Source: Escherichia phage vB_EcoM_SQ17. From it: DNA of 64,000 bases. The stretch lies in sequence record MW882907; one strand, 5' to 3'. The first letter of the stretch is position 1. Every line of letters starts with the position of its first letter. The notes under the pieces are model-generated. The model saw only the letters and a program-made list of their open reading frames with translations. It made no database searches and had not been told where the DNA came from. Positions 1,403 to 41,002 of this stretch are shown piece by piece. Both the position numbers and the translations under genes were made by a program.

Positions 1403-1732
1403 TTATACTCTAGGCTTTTGAGCTTGTTTGGTATTGGATTCCCATGCGGCTTTGGTAATTTTGTTAGCGGCATAACCAAAGGCACTAGATAGAACACCTT
1501 TAGAGTTGAATACGTCCAATCCAATAAGTACACCGGCTGTGTTAAATTTAGGAGCAAAGTACGCATTAGTTTTAGAAAGAGCTTTTTTCAATTCAGGGTC
1601 TTGAACCAAGCCATCAAAAACGCCTTTACTATTTACTTTATATGTTACTTTGGGATTTTTAGCTTCTTCGATAGCAGCTTTCTGTTCCGCAGATAATGTA
1701 ACTTCAGTGATAAACTCTTGATATGTTTTCAT
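1403..1732 (-). CDS. internal protein (IP)-like, capsid-targeting leader
   Basis: N-terminus MKTYQEFITE matches T4 IP capsid-targeting sequence ending in the gp21 protease site (I-x-E). Confidence 0.6.
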   Translation of the reverse strand: MKTYQEFITEVTLSAEQKAAIEEAKNPKVTYKVNSKGVFDGLVQDPELKKALSKTNAYFAPKFNTAGVLIGLDVFNSKGVLSSAFGYAANKITKAAWESNTKQAQKPRV

Positions 1733-1770
1733 ATGTTTCCTTTAAATGTAAATAGGCCTAAGTATCGGCC

Positions 1771-2349
1771 TTAATTACCACGGGCTGCATTAGCAACGGC
1801 ATAAGCGTACTGAACATTAGCGTCTTTAAACGTACCTTTAGAGGTATCTATTTCTGCCTTAAAGCCGCCTTTAGCCATAACATCGGCAAATTCTTTACGG
1901 AAAGCCATTGCATCAAGACCTTTCCATGATGATTTATGCTTGGCAAATTCAAGACCTGCGAAGTTGACAGCTTTAGCCAATTTATTATCAATGACCCATT
2001 TACCGGCTTTAGGCACAAACTTCGGTCCTTTTTGTTTAGAGAACAGTTTTAAATTCCAGCGACGAAGATCACTGTCGGCTTTAACAAAAGCTGCGTCTAA
2101 GTTACTAGCAACAACATCTTCAATATGAGCAAATTTAAGTCCGTCAACTTCAATATTTAGATCGTTACGCCAGCGAAGTCCTTCCCAAGCGAAGGCTTTA
2201 AAATCAGAAGCTTTTGTGGCTAGATATCGTTCAAGTGGAGCAGTTTTAGGGTCAAAGCCGTTTCCGCCACGATAAGTCCACTCGTCCTTATTAATGCCTT
2301 GAGCTTTTCCTGCAAAGGCCTCGGCGATAAATTCTTTATATGTTTTCAT
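1771..2349 (-). CDS. internal protein III-like
   Basis: Internal Met start gives MKTYKEFIAEA leader; ~192 aa like T4 IPIII; own early promoter upstream. Confidence 0.6.
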   Translation of the reverse strand: MKTYKEFIAEAFAGKAQGINKDEWTYRGGNGFDPKTAPLERYLATKASDFKAFAWEGLRWRNDLNIEVDGLKFAHIEDVVASNLDAAFVKADSDLRRWNLKLFSKQKGPKFVPKAGKWVIDNKLAKAVNFAGLEFAKHKSSWKGLDAMAFRKEFADVMAKGGFKAEIDTSKGTFKDANVQYAYAVANAARGN

Positions 2350-2379
2350 TTTTGTTTCCTTGTTTGTTTTGATAGAGTA

Positions 2380-2409
2380 ATTATACCATATTAACACTTA
2401 AGCGTAAAC
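2380..2409 (-). promoter_or_regulatory. T4-type early promoter (GTTTAC -35, 18 nt, TATAAT -10)
   Basis: minus-strand GTTTAC ... TATAAT ~30 nt upstream of IPIII-like start. Confidence 0.6.
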
Positions 2410-2412
2410 AAT

Positions 2413-2673
2413 TTAAGCTTTACCGCCAGAAATAATTCCGAAGTTGTTAAAATCGTATCCAATATCGTCAACATCTACTTTAGGGCTTGCTACAACATAA
2501 GCAATTTCACTACGTTTTGCATAGGTGTTGATTTCTTTACCATCGCCACCTAAGAAAAAATACCCATTACGTTTTAATGAGCCAAAGTCTTCCGCATCAC
2601 CAATGAAAGCTTTAACTTTAAATTTAGGACCTTTGGCATCTGCTTCAATGATAAATTCTTGATACATTTTCAT
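2413..2673 (-). CDS. internal protein (IP)-like
   Basis: N-terminus MKMYQEFIIEA leader. Confidence 0.55.
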   Translation of the reverse strand: MKMYQEFIIEADAKGPKFKVKAFIGDAEDFGSLKRNGYFFLGGDGKEINTYAKRSEIAYVVASPKVDVDDIGYDFNNFGIISGGKA

Positions 2674-2679
2674 TTTTCC

Positions 2680-3093
2680 TTAGTAAATTGATTTACCATA
2701 GTATTTGTACCAAGTAGGACGTTGAGCAATTTTTTCGTCTAAACGTGCTTGACTTATCGCAATGGACGCTTCGGACGGGACATAATTATTACGAAATTCG
2801 GCAGGGATGTCGGAAATATCCTGGACAGTCGTGTCCTTGATTTTGAAACCACGTTTCAAACATTCAGCGATTAGCTCGATTTGTCGTAAACGTAAAAATT
2901 CGAGTTTGTCGTAAAAGAATGTTACGTGACCTGTGCCTAAGATAAATGTTGGAGAGATTTTAAAATCCTTTACACGTTTACCGTTTTGAACATGTTTACG
3001 GACTGCACCAAATACGCGTGGTAATTCACGATACTCAGCCATAAGATGTTGGTCGGTCAGTTCAGAAACAAGTGTTAAATTGATACGAGTCAT
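2680..3093 (-). CDS. denV: endonuclease V, pyrimidine dimer DNA glycosylase
   Basis: [12 protein letters not shown]...[12 protein letters not shown]...[19 protein letters not shown] near-identical to T4 DenV from memory; internal Met start. Confidence 0.9.
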
Positions 3094-3151
3094 AAGTTCC
3101 TCCAAGTAGTTGATGAATGTATAGTATCAAAACCCTTGGAGGAAGTAAACA

Positions 3152-3433
3152 CTATTTTTCTGAAGCGCCTGAAATATATTTTTCAAGACGTTGTTTCATC
3201 AGCGAGCCGTTCTTAGCGATTTCTTCCGGTTTATCACACATACGCAACAAGGCTTCAAGCTTAACGATATCGCTGGTACGTTCAAATTTGCGAGTATCTA
3301 TCTTACTAGCAAGTTCAGAAATACGTGCTAATAGACTTTCGGCTTCAACCAAAGCTGCACCTAGCTTAGTTGCAAAGGTGTCAGTAGCTTCGTTAAGAAT
3401 AGATTCTGATAAAAATTCACTATATGTTTTCAT
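3152..3433 (-). CDS. internal protein (IP)-like
   Basis: Internal Met start gives [10 protein letters not shown] leader; sits between denV and e where T4 has ipII/ipIII. Confidence 0.55.
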
Positions 3434-3918
3434 ATATACGCTTTCCAAGTTCCTGTTTTAAATGTTGAGATTACGCGTTTCGCGCGATTAGGTGTCTGAC
3501 GATACCACTTAGATTGGGCTAGATTTACTGCCGCTTCGTCCCAACGTTTCTGTTGAAGCATACGAAGAGAATTAGTAAAACCAGCGACGCCTGCTACACC
3601 CATTTGGAAGACCATATTGACCAATGCACATCGACGAACTGCATCTAAAGAATCATATACCGGTTTAAGTTTAGCATTACCCAAGATTCCGCGAACAGCT
3701 TTATCAACATCTTCATTAAATAACTTTTCAGCCTCATCAAGGGTAATTGTACCGTTGCATTTACGTCCGATCATTCTGTCAAGTTCAGCTTTAGCTACGG
3801 CTAAAGACGGGTTCTTTGTTACTAAATGGCCTATGCCAATCGTCCAAAAGCCTTCAGTGTCTTTGTATAAAGACAGTCTAAGACCTTCGTCATTACGAAG
3901 CATTTCAAATATATTCAT
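3430..3918 (-). CDS. e: lysozyme (endolysin)
   Basis: [27 protein letters not shown] ... RAKRVI.TF.TGTW ~80% identical to T4 lysozyme from memory. Confidence 0.92.
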
Positions 3919-3952: not shown

Positions 3953-4411
3953 TTATAGGATGGTAGTGAGCACCTTATATAATGATTTGCCCATTACATA
4001 TTCCCATTGAGAAGGTTTAATTAAAGCGAATGCATCAAATTCAGGAATCTGTCGTCCGTCTGGGAACGTATGATAGGAATTACAAACACTGTTTCTGAAT
4101 TGCTCGTGCTCTACAGGGATGGTATATAAGAACAGATGAATATTCTTATTGTCTGAGTAATGATGATCACCTAGGTCTTTCAGGAAGGCAGGGTCATATT
4201 GTGTAAACCCGGTTTCTTCTTCGCATTCACGAATAGCGGCTTCGATAGGAGATTCGCCGGGCTCGACACGACCTTTAGGAATATCCCACCGATGAGCTAA
4301 AGAACCTTTAGGACGAGAACCAGTTACACGCCCCATGAATAATTCTTTATCTTCGGTAAGGAAAATAATACCAGCTGATAGTTCTTTCACTTTATTTTTC
4401 TTACTCATCAT
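3953..4411 (-). CDS. nudE: Nudix hydrolase
   Basis: Nudix box GRVEPGESPIEAAIRECEEETGF; position downstream of e as in T4; start uncertain among three Met. Confidence 0.8.
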   Translation of the reverse strand: MMSKKNKVKELSAGIIFLTEDKELFMGRVTGSRPKGSLAHRWDIPKGRVEPGESPIEAAIRECEEETGFTQYDPAFLKDLGDHHYSDNKNIHLFLYTIPVEHEQFRNSVCNSYHTFPDGRQIPEFDAFALIKPSQWEYVMGKSLYKVLTTIL

Positions 4412-4806
4412 CTCAAATTCCTGCATTCGGTAATAAAACGTTCAACTTCATTATTCTTGGCCTTTATCTTGTCTTTATGTTCTTGTAAACTACTTTTAAT
4501 AAGATTAATAATGATGGCAGCGGTACCGCCGCCAATGATGCCACCAACAACACTTATGATAATAGATGCTAATAAGATAGCAATAATATCAACAAAACCG
4601 AAAGAACTCACCTTAGTACTGAAAAACCATATAGACGGTACAAATATAATCCATCCTGTTATCCATTGACACTTATTGAAAAACTTTTCAAGCTCAGCTT
4701 GAGTTGTTCGTATTACTTCATCGATAGGTTGATATCCATTAATGTATCTGTTCACGATAATACCTGCTGGCTGGTCGATTTTAAATTCTTGGCAAATACG
4801 TTTCAC
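4408..4806 (-). CDS. membrane protein, function unknown
   Basis: Two hydrophobic segments (WITGWIIFVPSIWFF; IIAILLASIIISVVGGIIGGG); C-terminal ERFITECR tail. Confidence 0.4.
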   Translation of the reverse strand: MKRICQEFKIDQPAGIIVNRYINGYQPIDEVIRTTQAELEKFFNKCQWITGWIIFVPSIWFFSTKVSSFGFVDIIAILLASIIISVVGGIIGGGTAAIIINLIKSSLQEHKDKIKAKNNEVERFITECRNLR

Positions 4807-4887: not shown

Positions 4888-5574
4888 TTACCAGCCTTCC
4901 ATAGGGAATTCCAGATAAACTTGAGCATTGACACGAATTTCATTGGTAATCTTTTTAACTCGGTCTGTATTACGAGATACACGTCCGAACCAACGCCATC
5001 CATTACTAATTGCACGAGAACCAGTGTGCCATGTTTGCCAATCAAACTGAAGAAGAGTACGATCTGGAGCTTCCCATTTCTCTAGTTCACCTTTTTCAAT
5101 TTTTTCGAGGACTTCTTTGTGCCACTGACGATAGATAAGTTCGCCATCAGGAATCTGACTGAACTCTGCAGTTCCTGTTGCAAAATGAGTAGGACACACG
5201 TCAGCGTTAACAAGACCAAGAATATGTTCAGACAAATAGCGAGGATTGTCATAATCAGGTTGTCCTGCAGTAATAAAGTGTTGACCAACTGGAATATCAG
5301 GGCGTGGTACATCATCATGGTGATATCCAGGAATAGCAGGATACCAACCAGGCATCAGCATGTGGACTCGTGAATCAAATACTACATCAGAGTCTTTCCA
5401 ATCGTCAGGAAGATTTTGGATAAAGCTACGAGTAATTGGGCCGCCATTATCAAAAGCAAAATTCAAATCGCAGTTAAAGAACATAGGCTCGTTTTTAATC
5501 TGGTCGTTTTTAATCGCATGAGCAAAACCACCTACTGCACGAGCTTGACTATTAAACACTTTAGAACTATTCAT
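4888..5574 (-). CDS. hypothetical protein (His/Asp-rich, possible metal-dependent enzyme)
   Basis: 228-aa ORF, tight spacing with neighbours; PGYHHDDVP and CPTHFATG motifs; no secure family assignment. Confidence 0.4.
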   Translation of the reverse strand: MNSSKVFNSQARAVGGFAHAIKNDQIKNEPMFFNCDLNFAFDNGGPITRSFIQNLPDDWKDSDVVFDSRVHMLMPGWYPAIPGYHHDDVPRPDIPVGQHFITAGQPDYDNPRYLSEHILGLVNADVCPTHFATGTAEFSQIPDGELIYRQWHKEVLEKIEKGELEKWEAPDRTLLQFDWQTWHTGSRAISNGWRWFGRVSRNTDRVKKITNEIRVNAQVYLEFPMEGW

Positions 5575-8609: not shown

Positions 8610-8986
8610 GAGTGTTCCACCACTTCAAAAGTATGTGCACTGACAATCTGGTACCAGTCAAAATTTTCTTCAGCATTTTTGTAGATTTCACGAAGAGCTT
8701 CAACAGTTTTTCCTGTAGCAACAAGATCGTCAATACCGCCAAGAGGATAACAGTCGTAACCAGCAAACAGAAGGAAATTAATAGTTTCTGTAGGTTCTGG
8801 ATGCAGAATACCGTTATCATCTACCACTTCAAAGAAAGTGTAAGAAGGAGTACAAGTTTTAATCCAAGCCCAGGCTTGAGCCGCTGAATCAAATGGTCTG
8901 CGTATCAAACGACAATCAGGGTCTTTAGAAGGATTTGCTTCAAAATCCGCATATACTTGATATTTCATTTTACTCACCTTTTGCAA
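8606..8986 (-). CDS. hypothetical protein
   Basis: 126-aa ORF overlapping neighbours by a few nt. Confidence 0.4.
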   Translation of the reverse strand: MQKVSKMKYQVYADFEANPSKDPDCRLIRRPFDSAAQAWAWIKTCTPSYTFFEVVDDNGILHPEPTETINFLLFAGYDCYPLGGIDDLVATGKTVEALREIYKNAEENFDWYQIVSAHTFEVVEHS

Positions 8987-9155
8987 TTTTATCCATAACG
9001 ATAGCGATTAAGCCGATTAGAAATGCTACTACCAATGAGATAGAATTTTCTGTTGTTGTCAGTAGTCCACAAATGAATCCTACAAACATCGAAAAACTAA
9101 AAGCCATTGAAGCAATTACTACAGCAACATTACGAATCAGTTCAGCGCGTTTCAT
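8970..9155 (-). CDS. small hydrophobic protein
   Basis: 61-aa ORF with two hydrophobic stretches; early promoter upstream. Confidence 0.3.
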   Translation of the reverse strand: MKRAELIRNVAVVIASMAFSFSMFVGFICGLLTTTENSISLVVAFLIGLIAIVMDKIAKGE

Positions 9156-9224: not shown

Positions 9225-9533
9225 CTATTTTATTCCGCGTGATGCAATCGTATTCTGCCGTTTAACGCCAGTTTGTTTAAAGTTATGATTGTCGAGTTGA
9301 TCGGTACGAGCAACTCCGAATGATGATTTAATCTTAGCTTTAGATCCTTTAGTTATAGAAATATACATCTCGGGAGCCCCTTTCTTAAAGTCCGAAGCAA
9401 TTACTTCAACACCGTTCTTAGCAAGTGACCTCAGAATTGCTTCCGCATACTCATCATCAAGACCCGCTTGAGTATGAATAACGAATGTCTTTGGCGCAGC
9501 TGCTTCACAGATAAATTCTTTAAATGTTTTCAT
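9225..9533 (-). CDS. internal protein I-like (CTS leader)
   Basis: MKTFKEFICEAA leader; at the T4 ipI locus adjacent to 57B. Confidence 0.6.
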   Translation of the reverse strand: MKTFKEFICEAAAPKTFVIHTQAGLDDEYAEAILRSLAKNGVEVIASDFKKGAPEMYISITKGSKAKIKSSFGVARTDQLDNHNFKQTGVKRQNTIASRGIK

Positions 9534-9562
9534 TTTATTTTCCTAATTAATTTTGATGAGAT

Positions 9563-9592
9563 AATAGTACCACAACCCTATTTAAAAGTAAA
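9563..9592 (-). promoter_or_regulatory. T4-type early promoter
   Basis: minus-strand GTTTAC, 18 nt, TACTAT upstream of IP-like gene. Confidence 0.5.
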
Positions 9593-9593
9593 C

Positions 9594-9866
9594 TCATTTT
9601 AAATAAATTGCGTATTTTTTATAACCCGCTGTCTCATGTCGAAGACCCTTATCATTAGCAAAACGCTCAATGTTGTTAATTTGATTCTGGTCAAGTTCAG
9701 AGATGTCAAACACGAAATAGTTACGTTTGTTACCAACTGTTACATAGTCAGTTAAATCAATACCATATAGGTAATTGATGTTATCAATCATAGTCTTGAC
9801 AGCTTTGCTAATTTTTACTTTTTCATTAAAAGCAGCTTCATTGATAAATTCTTTAAATGTTTTCAT
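9594..9866 (-). CDS. internal protein-like (CTS leader)
   Basis: Internal Met gives MKTFKEFINEAA leader; early promoter lies between track ORF start and this Met, supporting the internal start. Confidence 0.6.
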   Translation of the reverse strand: MKTFKEFINEAAFNEKVKISKAVKTMIDNINYLYGIDLTDYVTVGNKRNYFVFDISELDQNQINNIERFANDKGLRHETAGYKKYAIYLK

Positions 9867-9902
9867 TTTATTCTCTAATTTCACATTTGTTTTGATAGGA
9901 TG

Positions 9903-9932
9903 ATAGTAACACACCATCATCCTTATGTAAAC
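9903..9932 (-). promoter_or_regulatory. T4-type early promoter
   Basis: minus-strand GTTTAC, ~18 nt, TACTAT. Confidence 0.5.
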
Positions 9933-9944
9933 TGTTTTGTGAAA

Positions 9945-10630
<686 letters not shown>

Positions 10631-37288: not shown

Positions 37289-38860
37289 ATGAAATTTAAT
37301 ATCTTAAGTTTGTTTGCTCCATGGGCAAAAATGGACGAACGTGATTACAAAGACCAAGAAAAAGAAAATTTAGAATCGATCACCACACCAAAATTAGACG
37401 ACGGCGCTAAAGAATACGAAGTATCTGAAAATGAAGCACAGCAAACATATAATGCTATGTTTCAGAGAATGTTCGGTAGCCAAGAACCAGGGCTCAAATC
37501 AACCCGTGAATTAATCGATACGTATCGAAATTTGATGACGAACTATGAAGTGGATAATGCAGTCTCTGAAATAGTTTCTGATGCTATCGTATATGAAGAT
37601 GATACAGAAGTCGTTTCTATAAATTTAGATAACACAAAATTTAGTCCAAATATCAAATCAATGATGTTGGATGAATTTAACGAAGTGTTAAATCATTTAT
37701 CTTTCCAACGTAAAGGTTCAGATCATTTTAGACGTTGGTATGTGGATTCTCGAATTTTCTTCCATAAAATTATTGACCCTAAACGCCCTAAAGAAGGTAT
37801 TAAAGAGCTTCGTCGTTTAGACCCACGTCAAGTTCAATATGTCCGTGAAGTTATTACAACCACTGAAGCCGGTGTTAAAATAGTCAAGGGTTATAAAGAA
37901 TATTTCATTTATGACACATCACACGAATCTTATGCTTGTGATGGTCGCATATATGAAGCTGGCACAAAAATAAAAATCCCTAAAGCCGCGATTGTTTATG
38001 CCCATTCTGGTTTAGTTGATTGTTGTGGTAAAAATATCATTGGTTATTTGCATCGGGCTATTAAGCCGGCGAACCAATTAAAACTTCTTGAAGATGCCGT
38101 CGTAATTTATCGTATTACTCGTGCTCCTGATCGTCGTGTATGGTATGTTGATACAGGTAATATGCCTTCAAGAAAAGCAGCAGAACATATGCAACATGTT
38201 ATGAATACGATGAAAAACCGTATTGCATATGATGCTACTACAGGCAAGATTAAAAACCAGCAGCATATTATGTCGATGACCGAAGATTATTGGTTACAAC
38301 GACGTGATGGTAAAGCGGTAACAGAAGTTGATACATTGCCTGGTGCAGATAATACTGGAAATATGGAAGATGTACGTTGGTTCCGTAATGCGCTTTATAT
38401 GGCTTTACGTATTCCTATTACCCGTATTCCAAGTGACCAAGGTGGTATACAGTTTGATGCTGGTACTTCTATTACACGAGATGAATTGACATTTGGTAAA
38501 TTTATTCGTGAGCTGCAACATAAATTTGAAGAGATATTCCTAGACCCGCTTAAAACTAATTTAATTCTTAAAGGAATTATTACAGAAGATGAGTGGAATG
38601 ATGAAATAAATAATATTAAGATAAAATTTCATCGGGATAGTTATTTCTCGGAATTAAAGGATGCTGAGATTCTGGAGCGTCGCATTAATATGCTTCAGAT
38701 GGCCGAACCATTTATTGGTAAATATATTTCTCACAGAACAGCTATGAAAGATATTCTTCAGATGTCTGACGAGGAAATTGAACAAGAGGCTAAGCAAATT
38801 GAAGAAGAGTCGAAAGAGGCTCGTTTCCAAGACCCCGACCAAGAACAAGAGGATTTTTAA
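37289..38860 (+). CDS. 20: portal vertex protein gp20
   Basis: 523 aa, synteny. Confidence 0.95.
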
Positions 38861-39090
38861 TGGACGATTTAATTCAAGCTATTAAATCAAACGACCTCGT
38901 TGCTACTCGAAAGTTTTTTGAAAGTGCAATGGCAGAAAAAACGGTTCGTTTGATTGAAGCACGCAAAGCAGAAATCGCTTCTCAATTTTTGATTGAAGGC
39001 GAAGAACCCGAAGAAGGAGAGAAAGCTTCGGAAGACGACGCTGATGAAGGCGATGACGACGAAGACGAAGATGATGAGGACGATGAATAA
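38860..39090 (+). CDS. 67: prohead core protein gp67
   Basis: 76 aa with acidic C-terminal tail, synteny. Confidence 0.8.
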
Positions 39091-39515
39091 TGTATCTTAT
39101 CCCTGAATCTTATGAATTGGTACTCGAAAATGTCGAAGCACTTATTCCTGAAGCACAGGGCCGAATCGATGCATTGTCTTCTGCTCTCGATATTGACGAT
39201 ATAAATACTATTATCGAGAACATGCTTGAAACTGAAACGGATTTAGCTGTTGCAATGGCTTCCATTATTAATGAAGAACAGTTAAATGAGTTTATCGTTA
39301 AACATGTTTCTTCTCGTGGTGAAGTCACTCGCACTAAAGACCGTAAAACTCGTGAACGTAACGCGTTCCAAACAACTGGTCTTTCTAAAGCAAAACGTAG
39401 ACAAATCGCTCGTAAGGTCGTTAAAGCTAAAAAAGCTAACCCTTCAGGCCAAGTTAAAGGCTTGCGTAAGCGTAAAAAAGCTCTTAAACGTCGTAAAGCA
39501 TTAGGATTAAGCTAA
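39090..39515 (+). CDS. 68: prohead core protein gp68
   Basis: 141 aa, basic C-terminus, synteny. Confidence 0.8.
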
Positions 39516-40156
39516 TGAATAAACCCGAGTTACTTATTGAAACTTGGGGTCAACCCGGTGAGATTATTGATGGCGTTCCAATGTTGGAATCTCATGATGG
39601 AAAAGATTCTGGCTTAAAACCAGGGCTTTATATAGAAGGTATTTTTCTTCAGGCAGAGGTTGTTAACCGAAATAAACGTTTATATCCTAAACGCGTTTTG
39701 GAAAAAGCAGTAAGTGACTATATTAAAGAACAAGTCGAAACCAAACAAGCCCTTGGAGAATTAAACCATCCGCCTCGTGCAAATGTTGACCCCATGCAAG
39801 CCGCTATCATTATTGAAGATATGTGGTGGAAAGGAAACGATGTATATGGACGTGCTAGAATTATTGAAGGCGACCATGGTCCCGGCGATAAATTAGCTGC
39901 TAATATACGAGCTGGTTGGATTCCAGGTGTTTCCTCTCGTGGTCTTGGTTCTTTAACCGACACCAATAAAGGATACCGTATCGTGAACGAAGGATTTAAA
40001 TTAACCGTCGGCGTAGATGCTGTATGGGGACCTTCTGCTCCAGATGCTTGGGTTACTCCTAAACAAATATCAGAATCAGAAAATTCGGTGGAAATCACCA
40101 AAAACAGTGCTGACGAAGCATTTAAAGCTCTCGCAGAGAGTTTAAAAGCATTATAA
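39515..40156 (+). CDS. 21: prohead core protease gp21
   Basis: 213 aa, synteny between 68 and 22. Confidence 0.9.
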   Translation: MNKPELLIETWGQPGEIIDGVPMLESHDGKDSGLKPGLYIEGIFLQAEVVNRNKRLYPKRVLEKAVSDYIKEQVETKQALGELNHPPRANVDPMQAAIIIEDMWWKGNDVYGRARIIEGDHGPGDKLAANIRAGWIPGVSSRGLGSLTDTNKGYRIVNEGFKLTVGVDAVWGPSAPDAWVTPKQISESENSVEITKNSADEAFKALAESLKAL

Positions 40157-40159
40157 ATA
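40152..40159 (+). promoter_or_regulatory. late promoter TATAAATA (gene 22)
   Basis: exact TATAAATA overlapping gene 21 stop. Confidence 0.6.
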
Positions 40160-40189
40160 ATAATGTAATCTAAACCACAGGACACTAAA

Positions 40190-41002
40190 ATGATCAAAGA
40201 ACAACTTTTGAAAGAAGCTCAGAACATCGAGACTTCAGTTGCTCTTAATAGTGTTTTCGAATCAGTAGAACTGTCTCCGGACGTTAAAGCTAATTTCAGC
40301 ACTGTATTCGAAGCCACCGTTAAGCAGGAAGCAGTCAAACTGGCTGAATCTCATATCAAAGCCATCGCCGAAAAGGCCGAAGAAGAAGTTGAAAAGGCTA
40401 AAGAAGATGCTGAAGAGAAAGCTGATAAAAAATTGGCCGAACAAGCTTCTAAATTCCTAGACCATCTTGCAAAAGAATGGCTCGCAGAAAACCAAATCGC
40501 AGTTGATAAAGGCATTAAAGCTGATTTGTTCGAATCCATGCTTGGTGGTCTTAAAGAACTGTTTGTTGAACATAACGTTGTTGTTCCAGAAGAATCTGTA
40601 GATGTTGTAGCAGAAATGGAAGAAGAGCTGGCCGAACATAAAGAAGAAACCGCTCGTTTGTTCGAAGAAGTTACCAAACGTGATGCATATATCAATTACG
40701 TTCAGCGTGAAACCGCTATTATTGAAAGCGTAAAAGACCTGACTGAATCTCAGAAAGAAAAAGTTATTGGCCTGGTTGAAGGTATGGATTATTCTGACGC
40801 ATTTGGTACTAAGTTAACTGCTATTGTAGAAATGGTTAAAGGTTCTACTAAAGAAGAAACCGCTATTACCGAAAGTATAAATACAGTTGACAATGACGCT
40901 GCCGGTCTTAATTTTGTTGCCGAAGCAGTTGACACTACCACAACTCAGGTAGAACAGAATTCTAATGTAAGTTTATATGCGAAAGTCGCATCTCGTTTCT
41001 AA
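40190..41002 (+). CDS. 22: prohead scaffold core protein gp22
   Basis: 270 aa, Glu/Lys-rich coiled coil. Confidence 0.9.
   Translation: MIKEQLLKEAQNIETSVALNSVFESVELSPDVKANFSTVFEATVKQEAVKLAESHIKAIAEKAEEEVEKAKEDAEEKADKKLAEQASKFLDHLAKEWLAENQIAVDKGIKADLFESMLGGLKELFVEHNVVVPEESVDVVAEMEEELAEHKEETARLFEEVTKRDAYINYVQRETAIIESVKDLTESQKEKVIGLVEGMDYSDAFGTKLTAIVEMVKGSTKEETAITESINTVDNDAAGLNFVAEAVDTTTTQVEQNSNVSLYAKVASRF

Follow-up and report, generated by a model that had tools for sequence, protein, structure and literature searches.

Four internal protein genes with capsid-targeting leaders around denV of Escherichia phage vB_EcoM_SQ17: a probable Mosigvirus form of the T-even e-denV locus

Results and discussion

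Leader-bearing genes at the e-denV locus

A stretch of 64,000 nucleotides (nt) of Escherichia phage vB_EcoM_SQ17 (sequence record MW882907), which is termed the window in its full length, contains between positions 1403 and 3433 four open reading frames (ORFs) that surround the denV gene and begin with a leader of the kind that targets the internal proteins (IPs) of phage T4 to the capsid. These ORFs are designated ipA, ipB, ipC and ipD and are listed with the other features of the window in Table 1. An earlier note, made from the sequence alone, had reported four such ORFs around denV, and their positions on the minus strand and their leaders are all recovered by the ORF list and a six-frame motif scan, in which the leaders of ipA to ipD are exact. 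A six-frame translation of the window yields six copies of the motif MK[TM][YF]xEF[IL]xE, whereas 9e-6 copies are expected from the amino-acid composition. All six copies are located at the start of an ORF, behind a Shine-Dalgarno-like AGGA or GGAA sequence, and the leaders of all six ORFs fit the motif. The length of ipB is counted from an internal ATG, because the mechanical ORF list runs on to a GTG at 2397. The start codon of ipD overlaps the stop codon of gene e in the sequence ATGA.

The ORFs with the two other motif copies, ipE and ipF, are located at a second locus (9225-9866), in which the window carries two leader-bearing genes where T4 has ipI, with leaders of the MKTFKEF type that is typical of that locus. 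Both gene groups are located in known polymorphic ip loci, ipA to ipD between e and vs.8, and ipE and ipF between trna.4 and 57B. T4 ipI has no match in the window, and ipI and ipII are both absent from it.

Table 1. Features of the window at and around the two internal protein loci, and genes of the prohead core
Feature	Position	Strand	Description
Conserved element	1230-1402	minus (sense)	gap of about 170 nt between ipA and a vs.8-like ORF; candidate structured RNA
ipA (ORF 1)	1403-1732	minus	precursor of 109 amino acids (aa), leader MKTYQEFITE; predicted mature protein 99 aa, isoelectric point (pI) 9.7; ORF list and motif scan
Terminator-like sequence	1754-1771	minus	short G+C hairpin with T-rich tail between ipB and ipA; consensus match only
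ipB (ORF 2)	1771-2349	minus	ipIII orthologue, 192 aa, leader MKTYKEFIAE; mature pI 9.6
Sigma-70-like promoter	2380-2408	minus	TTTACG-17-TATAAT with upstream TG, ahead of ipB; consensus match, putative function
ipC (ORF 3)	2413-2673	minus	precursor of 86 aa, leader MKMYQEFIIE; mature protein 76 aa, pI 6.4
denV (endonuclease V)	2680-3093	minus	conserved landmark between ipC and ipD; outside the system
ipD (ORF 4), probable Ip5	3152-3433	minus	precursor of 93 aa; mature pI 6.3
Gene e (lysozyme)	3430-3918		immediately upstream of ipD
trna.4 match	8973-9155		landmark of the second locus (tblastn)
ipF	9225-9533	minus	102 aa, leader MKTFKEFICE; second locus (trna.4-57B); Ip7-like, 48% identical to VR20 ip7
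ipE	9594-9866	minus	90 aa, leader MKTFKEFINE; second locus; phrog_7673 'internal head protein'
57B match	9948-10403		landmark of the second locus (match to T4 57B, tblastn)
Gene 20 (portal)	37289-38857		tblastn
Genes 67, 68, (21), 22	38869-40999	plus	prohead core, the scaffold targeted by the leader; tblastn, 64-81% identity to T4 gp67, gp68 and gp22
Gene 21 (prohead protease)	39515-40147	plus	tblastn with T4 gp21, 88% identity over 211 aa
Gene 22	40190-40999	plus	tblastn, 77% identity to T4 gp22

The region 1300-3500 matches 796 phage records in a megablast search. For 57 of them the match extends over at least 80% of the query, and the block is thus shared by at least 57 phages in GenBank. 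The closest are Mosigvirus (RB69-like) phages, such as S143_2 (98.6%) and phiC120 (96.5%), and the window phage is a Mosigvirus. The genes of this block are labelled 'internal head protein', 'internal virion protein' or 'internal protein III' in these relatives, except for the ipA homologue, which is labelled 'hypothetical'.

Leader residues, processing sites and head machinery

The first 10 residues of T4 IPIII are sufficient for targeting to the head, according to a review of Black's work (PMC9026906). Residues 4 and 7 are the targeting determinants in the mutagenesis of Mullaney and Black as summarised in this review, and residues 8 and 10 are the processing determinants, with Asp-10 blocking cleavage. 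Tyr-4 and Phe-7 are present in all of ipA to ipD, and Phe-4 and Phe-7 in ipE and ipF. Residues 8 to 10 are I-T-E in ipA, I-A-E in ipB, I-I-E in ipC and L-S-E in ipD, and so Ile or Leu at position 8 and Glu at position 10 are also found in four of four proteins. The proposal that these leaders are the T4 capsid-targeting sequence is therefore upheld at each of the four experimentally defined positions.

The machinery that recognises such leaders in T4 is also encoded in the window. The prohead protease gp21 is highly similar to that of T4 (Table 1), and the identity to the T4 protein is 81% for gp68 and 64% for gp67, the latter over a partial alignment of 44 of 80 aa. The cognate protease and the scaffolding core are encoded by the same phage as the leader-bearing proteins.

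The ipD protein contains a second cleavage-type site, LNE followed by Ala, at residues 13-15, and this site is the one that is conserved across the Ip5 family, to which ipD belongs. The RB69 homologue, ORF127c, begins with MKTYMNFYQN and has lost both Glu-10 and the EF motif, and VR20 ip5 also lacks Glu-10. All three proteins (ipD, RB69 ORF127c and VR20 ip5) retain Tyr-4, Phe-7 and the LNE-Ala site. This comparison suggests that proteins of the Ip5 family are cleaved after residue 15. The mature N-terminus of ipD is probably Ala-16, because RB69 ORF127c and VR20 ip5 lose Glu-10 but retain LNE-15. The earlier claim that each of the four leaders ends in an I/L-x-E site cut by gp21 is correct as to the presence of the sites and of the gp21 gene, but needs to be modified for ipD, which is probably cleaved after LNE-15, either instead of or as well as after LSE-10. 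The RB69 homologue of ipA, with the leader MKTYQEFIAA, also lacks Glu-10. The copies with damaged leaders are located at 3465-3746 and 4890-5219 of the RB69 stretch (L005) and at 4131-4412 of the VR20 stretch (L016).

Identity of the cargos

When the four proteins are compared with one another by pairwise BLASTP, similarity is confined to the first 10-20 residues. The cargos are unrelated to each other, as had been claimed, but two of them are not new, because ipB is IPIII itself and ipD is probably the already named Ip5. The ipB protein is 92.7% identical to T4 IPIII over its full length of 192 aa (BLASTP, E=2e-136), matches phrog_5341 'internal virion protein' over its full length (E=2e-117), and is annotated as internal protein III or internal virion protein in related phages. 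It is an orthologue of IPIII, with which it shares its length, the type of its 10-residue leader and a basic character. It differs from T4 IPIII in that residue 5 of the leader is Lys instead of Gln, and in that its gene is located on the vs.8 side of denV, whereas T4 ipIII is located between denV and e. The two proteins also serve phages with different DNA, because the cytosines are arabinosylated in the window phage and glucosylated in T4.

The ipD protein matches phrog_3499 'internal head protein' (E=1e-46) and is 89% identical to VR20 ip5; the name Ip5 rests on the VR20 record, which reads 'similar to bacteriophage T6 Ip5'. Its RB69 counterpart is RB69ORF127c, and a more distant relative with 47% identity, Shfl2p141, is located at the ipI locus and has an IPI-type leader. 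The ipC protein matches phrog_2667 'internal head protein' and is present in 217 phage records, and ipE and ipF, like ipC and ipD, fall in PHROGs labelled internal head protein. The ipA protein matches phrog_3966 'unknown function' and is present in 90 phage records, all of which label it hypothetical. Its only distant relative is of the WG01 ORF115 type, with 36% identity and the leader MKTYQQFITE. The ipA protein represents a small, unnamed internal protein family that is consistently mis-annotated as hypothetical, and it is the only new member of the cluster, since the other three of the four genes already bear internal protein names or family labels.

The cargos do not match any entry of Pfam, NCBIfam or PADLOC or any sequence in PDB; neither a housekeeping family nor a solved structure is matched in the profile and structure searches that had been suggested as a check. 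Searches for homologues of ipA, ipC and ipD in a collection of 5.8 billion proteins give near-identical phage proteins only, and an exhaustive HMMER search with ipA adds one real relative, the remainder being low-complexity noise. Deep alignments are impossible for these three proteins, because the searches give almost only near-identical proteins. The AlphaFold2 (AF2) model of ipA alone is not usable, with a predicted local distance difference test score (pLDDT) of 45. The model of ipC has a moderate pLDDT of 75 and predicts a small alpha/beta fold, for which the convincing structural neighbours are homologues from T4-like phages only; no IPI* chain is found among the matches listed for this model. 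The cargos are 95-100% conserved over dozens to hundreds of phage genomes.

Layout of the locus and exchange of cassettes among relatives

The order of genes in T4 is e - ipIII - ipII - denV - vs.8, which agrees with the earlier statement that T4 has only ipII and ipIII here, both between denV and e. The arrangement of one ip gene between e and denV and three on the other side of denV is found in the window, but it is not unusual, because many Mosigvirus genomes share it and VR20 is annotated alike, with the order e - ip5 - denV - ip10 - orf - ip7 - vs.8. Polymorphic Ip5, Ip7 and Ip10 are known from T6, VR7 and VR20 (Repoila et al., 1994, as cited in later papers, and subsequent annotations). 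The ipD gene occupies the slot of VR20 ip5 between e and denV, and VR20 has the same one-plus-three layout as the window. The two loci differ in that the Ip10 cassette is present in VR20, as in S143_2 and phi25-307, but not in the window, whereas ipA is present in the window but not in VR20.

The loci of ten phages were compared, and leader-bearing genes were counted by the motif scan. Their number at the e-denV locus is two in T4, three in moha, four in the window, phiC120, PHB12 and the Dhakavirus WG01, five in S143_2 and W143, and six in phi25-307. PHB12 has ipII at the position where the window has ipA. An Ip10-like cassette (104 aa, MKTYKEFIAE), which the window lacks, is located between ipIII and ipC in close relatives (2577-2891 of stretch L002, 2996-3310 of L004). 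RB69 has no ipIII, and its ipIII slot is occupied by an Ip10-like gene of 90 aa with a different C-terminus (L005, 4549-4821). Of ipC, the Mosigvirus phages JS09 (KF582788, 106280-106348) and PhAPEC2 (NC_024794, 63316-63384) keep no more than the final 23 residues, and phrog_35655, a family of 38 residues, matches the C-terminus of ipC alone. The tails in JS09 and PhAPEC2 look like scars left by deletion or replacement of a cassette.

The Tequatrovirus Shfl2 also has a cargo of the Ip5 family at its ipI locus, where it carries the leader type of that locus, MKTFKEF...ITE. This result indicates that cargos move between loci and that each locus keeps its own leader type. The DNA of the leader is nearly identical between cassettes. 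In addition, ipB, ipF and ipE share an upstream block, ggtaNtat(t)a...ctcatcaaaa, with the -10-like sequences TATAAT, TACTAT and TATTAT (2350-2412, 9534-9580 and 9867-9912), and the mobile unit therefore seems to comprise the promoter, the 5' untranslated region and the leader. It is plausible that these shared leader and upstream sequences serve as substrates for recombinational exchange.

Probable function of the encoded proteins

Diverse leader-bearing internal proteins have already been described (Repoila et al., 1994, as cited in later papers; Rao and Black, 2010), and the internal proteins have been characterised as a diverse set that counters host defences and has only the leader in common (PMC3012670). 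T4 requires IPIII to infect ECOR17, and IPIII supplied in trans also serves without its leader (Srikant et al., 2022, PMC9391042). The GmrSD type IV enzyme that is inhibited differs between Ip1, Ip2 and Ip3, which give no cross-protection, and GmrSD variants have been proposed as the targets of every gene in 'the two Ip loci' (Silas et al., 2025, PMC12373910). According to a 2025 preprint, Bas37_0260, which is encoded at the ipI locus, inhibits McrBC. RB69 IPI gives protection against GmrSD, and BrxU, an enzyme of the GmrSD family, cuts the arabinosylated DNA of Mosigvirus phages. The feature reported here is real but ordinary: its kind has been known since 1994, and its mechanism was extended between 2022 and 2025.

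On this background, the region is most likely the Mosigvirus form of the T-even e-denV ip locus, and its products would be inhibitors of modification-dependent restriction that are delivered by their leaders and injected. The locus would be an array of small, independently exchangeable cassettes, each of which joins a capsid-targeting leader of about 10 residues to an unrelated cargo. During prohead assembly, the leader would bind to the gp22/gp67/gp68 scaffolding core through Tyr-4 or Phe-4 and Phe-7, and gp21 would cleave it after (I/L)-x-Glu, in Ip5 probably also or instead after LNE-15. Mature proteins of 8-20 kDa would thereby be freed inside the head, exit with the DNA at infection, and act in the new cell before any phage gene is expressed. 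Their most likely activity would be the stoichiometric inhibition of type IV enzymes of the GmrSD/McrBC class, which cut DNA with sugar-modified cytosines, and the four different cargos may be directed against four different variants of the host enzymes. Of this scheme, the window and its comparison with relatives show the leaders, the cleavage-type sites, the protease and scaffold genes, the orthology of ipB to IPIII and probably of ipD to Ip5, and the presence or absence of single cassettes. The T4 literature supplies how such proteins are targeted, processed and injected, and that they inhibit GmrSD and McrBC.

The four proteins differ in how far this scheme can be carried over to them. An anti-restriction role of ipB is strongly supported by its similarity to IPIII, and the earlier description of the cargos as proteins of unknown specificity does not fully apply to this orthologue, because T4 Ip3 blocks the GmrSD system of ECOR17. 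We infer by analogy that ipA, ipC and ipD are likewise packaged, processed and active against restriction. The earlier view of the cargos as candidate injected anti-defence effectors accords with the experiments on Ip1, Ip2, Ip3 and Bas37_0260, but it is already the published view. T4 IPI* and IPII, which inhibit GmrSD, and Bas37_0260, which inhibits McrBC, follow the same delivery logic of leader, gp21 processing and injection, and are likewise small single-domain cargos with no homologues outside T4-like phages, but they have no sequence similarity to the window cargos past the leader. P1 Dar and the ejection proteins of SPN3US and phiKZ are also packaged in the head and delivered with the DNA, and, as far as the available descriptions go, some of them act against restriction and some are processed by a prohead protease; these descriptions give them as much larger proteins of unrelated phages, with other targeting signals.

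Several points weigh against an anti-restriction role of the whole cluster. The ipC and ipD proteins, with pI values of 6.3-6.4, are not basic, unlike T4 IPI, IPII and IPIII. An anti-restriction role has been demonstrated only for T4 Ip1-3 and for one Bas37 protein, and IPIII has an additional effect on head assembly. Strict conservation of the canonical 10-residue leader is not needed for these genes to persist, because the RB69 homologues of ipD and ipA have damaged leaders without Glu-10. No perfect T4 late-promoter box (TATAAATA) is found inside the cluster, and late expression is therefore assumed from T4 rather than observed. The literature searched yielded neither virion proteomics nor N-terminal data for this phage, nor for these cargos in any Mosigvirus.

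Among the alternatives, it is unlikely, though worth weighing, that some of the cargos are injected against targets other than type IV enzymes, such as other defences, or for host takeover. The Alt ADP-ribosyltransferase, which modifies RNA polymerase, takes the same route of packaging and processing, no similarity to Ip1-3 is detectable for ipA, ipC or ipD, and the ipA family is tiny and unannotated. However, every internal protein with a known target, four in all, acts on type IV enzymes, and the cargos of the window are too small (8-11 kDa) and too poor in motifs to be enzymes.

It is somewhat less likely still that the proteins are mainly structural and have no role in the next host; they would then be basic proteins that associate with the DNA, fill the head, neutralise charge and aid prohead assembly or DNA packaging. 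Such a role would suit ipA and ipB, which are basic (pI 9.6-9.7), and the T4 internal proteins, each of which shares the head with the DNA in about 300 copies and shows DNA binding at low salt; in IPIII mutants, head assembly is slowed and polyheads are formed. Against this role, ipC and ipD have no net charge, T4 mutants lacking all three internal proteins grow on laboratory hosts, Ip1-3 have defined restriction enzymes as their targets, and the free swapping of cargos among relatives suits roles that are specific to the host.

It is very improbable that one or more of the genes are decaying remnants of a hyperplastic region that keep an ancestral leader but are no longer packaged, because the four leaders of the window are intact and preceded by ribosome-binding sites and the cargos are highly conserved, although damaged leaders in RB69 homologues, the ipC fragments in JS09 and PhAPEC2 and the match of phrog_35655 to the ipC C-terminus are of the kind that decay would leave.

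Injected inhibition of modification-dependent restriction thus remains the preferred reading. As a further and tentative possibility, rather doubtful at present, ipA may found a new internal protein family that, together with ipC and Ip5, is tuned to restriction enzymes or other first-line defences recognising the arabinosylated cytosines of Mosigvirus DNA. If this is the case, these proteins and their targets would form inhibitor-target pairs separate from those of T4 Ip1-3 and GmrSD.

A conserved element between ipA and vs.8

The gap between ipA and the vs.8-like ORF contains a non-coding element that is highly conserved but unannotated in relatives. It is detected by blastn in 1069 phage records across T4-like genera, and contains a near-invariant core of 40 nt, CCAACCTGTAATAAGGTCGAGCCCAAGTGCGGTAATGGGT, at 1294-1333. 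Copies with 95-100% identity to the core are present in rV5-like Vequintavirus phages, where they lie between genes close to the tRNA array, and the core is also found within a tRNA array of an unrelated metagenomic contig. The helices that flank the core vary in sequence but keep their pairing through compensatory changes. The helix that closes 2-4 nt upstream of the core is GGGAA/UUCCC, GGGAG/CUCCC, AAAGG/CCUUU, AAAGCU/AGCUUU, GGGG/CCCC or UGAAUGU/ACAUUCA, the inner hairpin changes from CCUCAU/AUGAGG to CCUCAC/GUGAGG and CCUUAU/AUAAGG, and a long-range pair is A:U, U:A or U:G. In FV3, the element is located upstream of the promoter of the next gene, and it is therefore not simply the 5' leader of vs.8.

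Several identities of this element were considered and rejected. It has no match in Rfam, so that it is not a known RNA family, and none in E. coli genomes, so that a host origin is not supported. It is not a small ORF, because no frame with a start codon stays open in all lineages. A similarity to T4 rnaC or rnaD was also rejected, as was a simple stable fold of the window copy, for which the z-score is +1.6. A text search of the literature for the core sequence gave no match. The covariation, which comes from few independent lineages, is suggestive of a small structured RNA, and the element may be more novel than the ip cluster itself.

In T4 (NC_000866), the DNA of this element at 3300-3413 of the T4 stretch, which corresponds to 1230-1340 of the window, forms codons 1 to 40 of vs.8 in the annotation. 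The window and other genera have this DNA split over three reading frames. The start of the annotated T4 vs.8 (219 aa) is probably placed about 40 codons upstream of the true one. The N-terminal extension of the T4 protein overlies the element, and the protein that is shared among these phages would begin with MRTFLTG.

Implications

The results largely confirm a known hotspot, and the likely cleavage site of the Ip5 family is refined. The practical value is modest: ipA, ipC and Ip5, which come from a lineage with arabinose-modified DNA, are candidates to be matched with GmrSD and McrBC variants, and a catalogue of such cargos could serve the host-range engineering of therapeutic T4-like phages. 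For the biology of the family, the locus is consistent with T-even-type phages keeping a changeable set of injected proteins, of which each member studied so far disables one variant of a host restriction enzyme.

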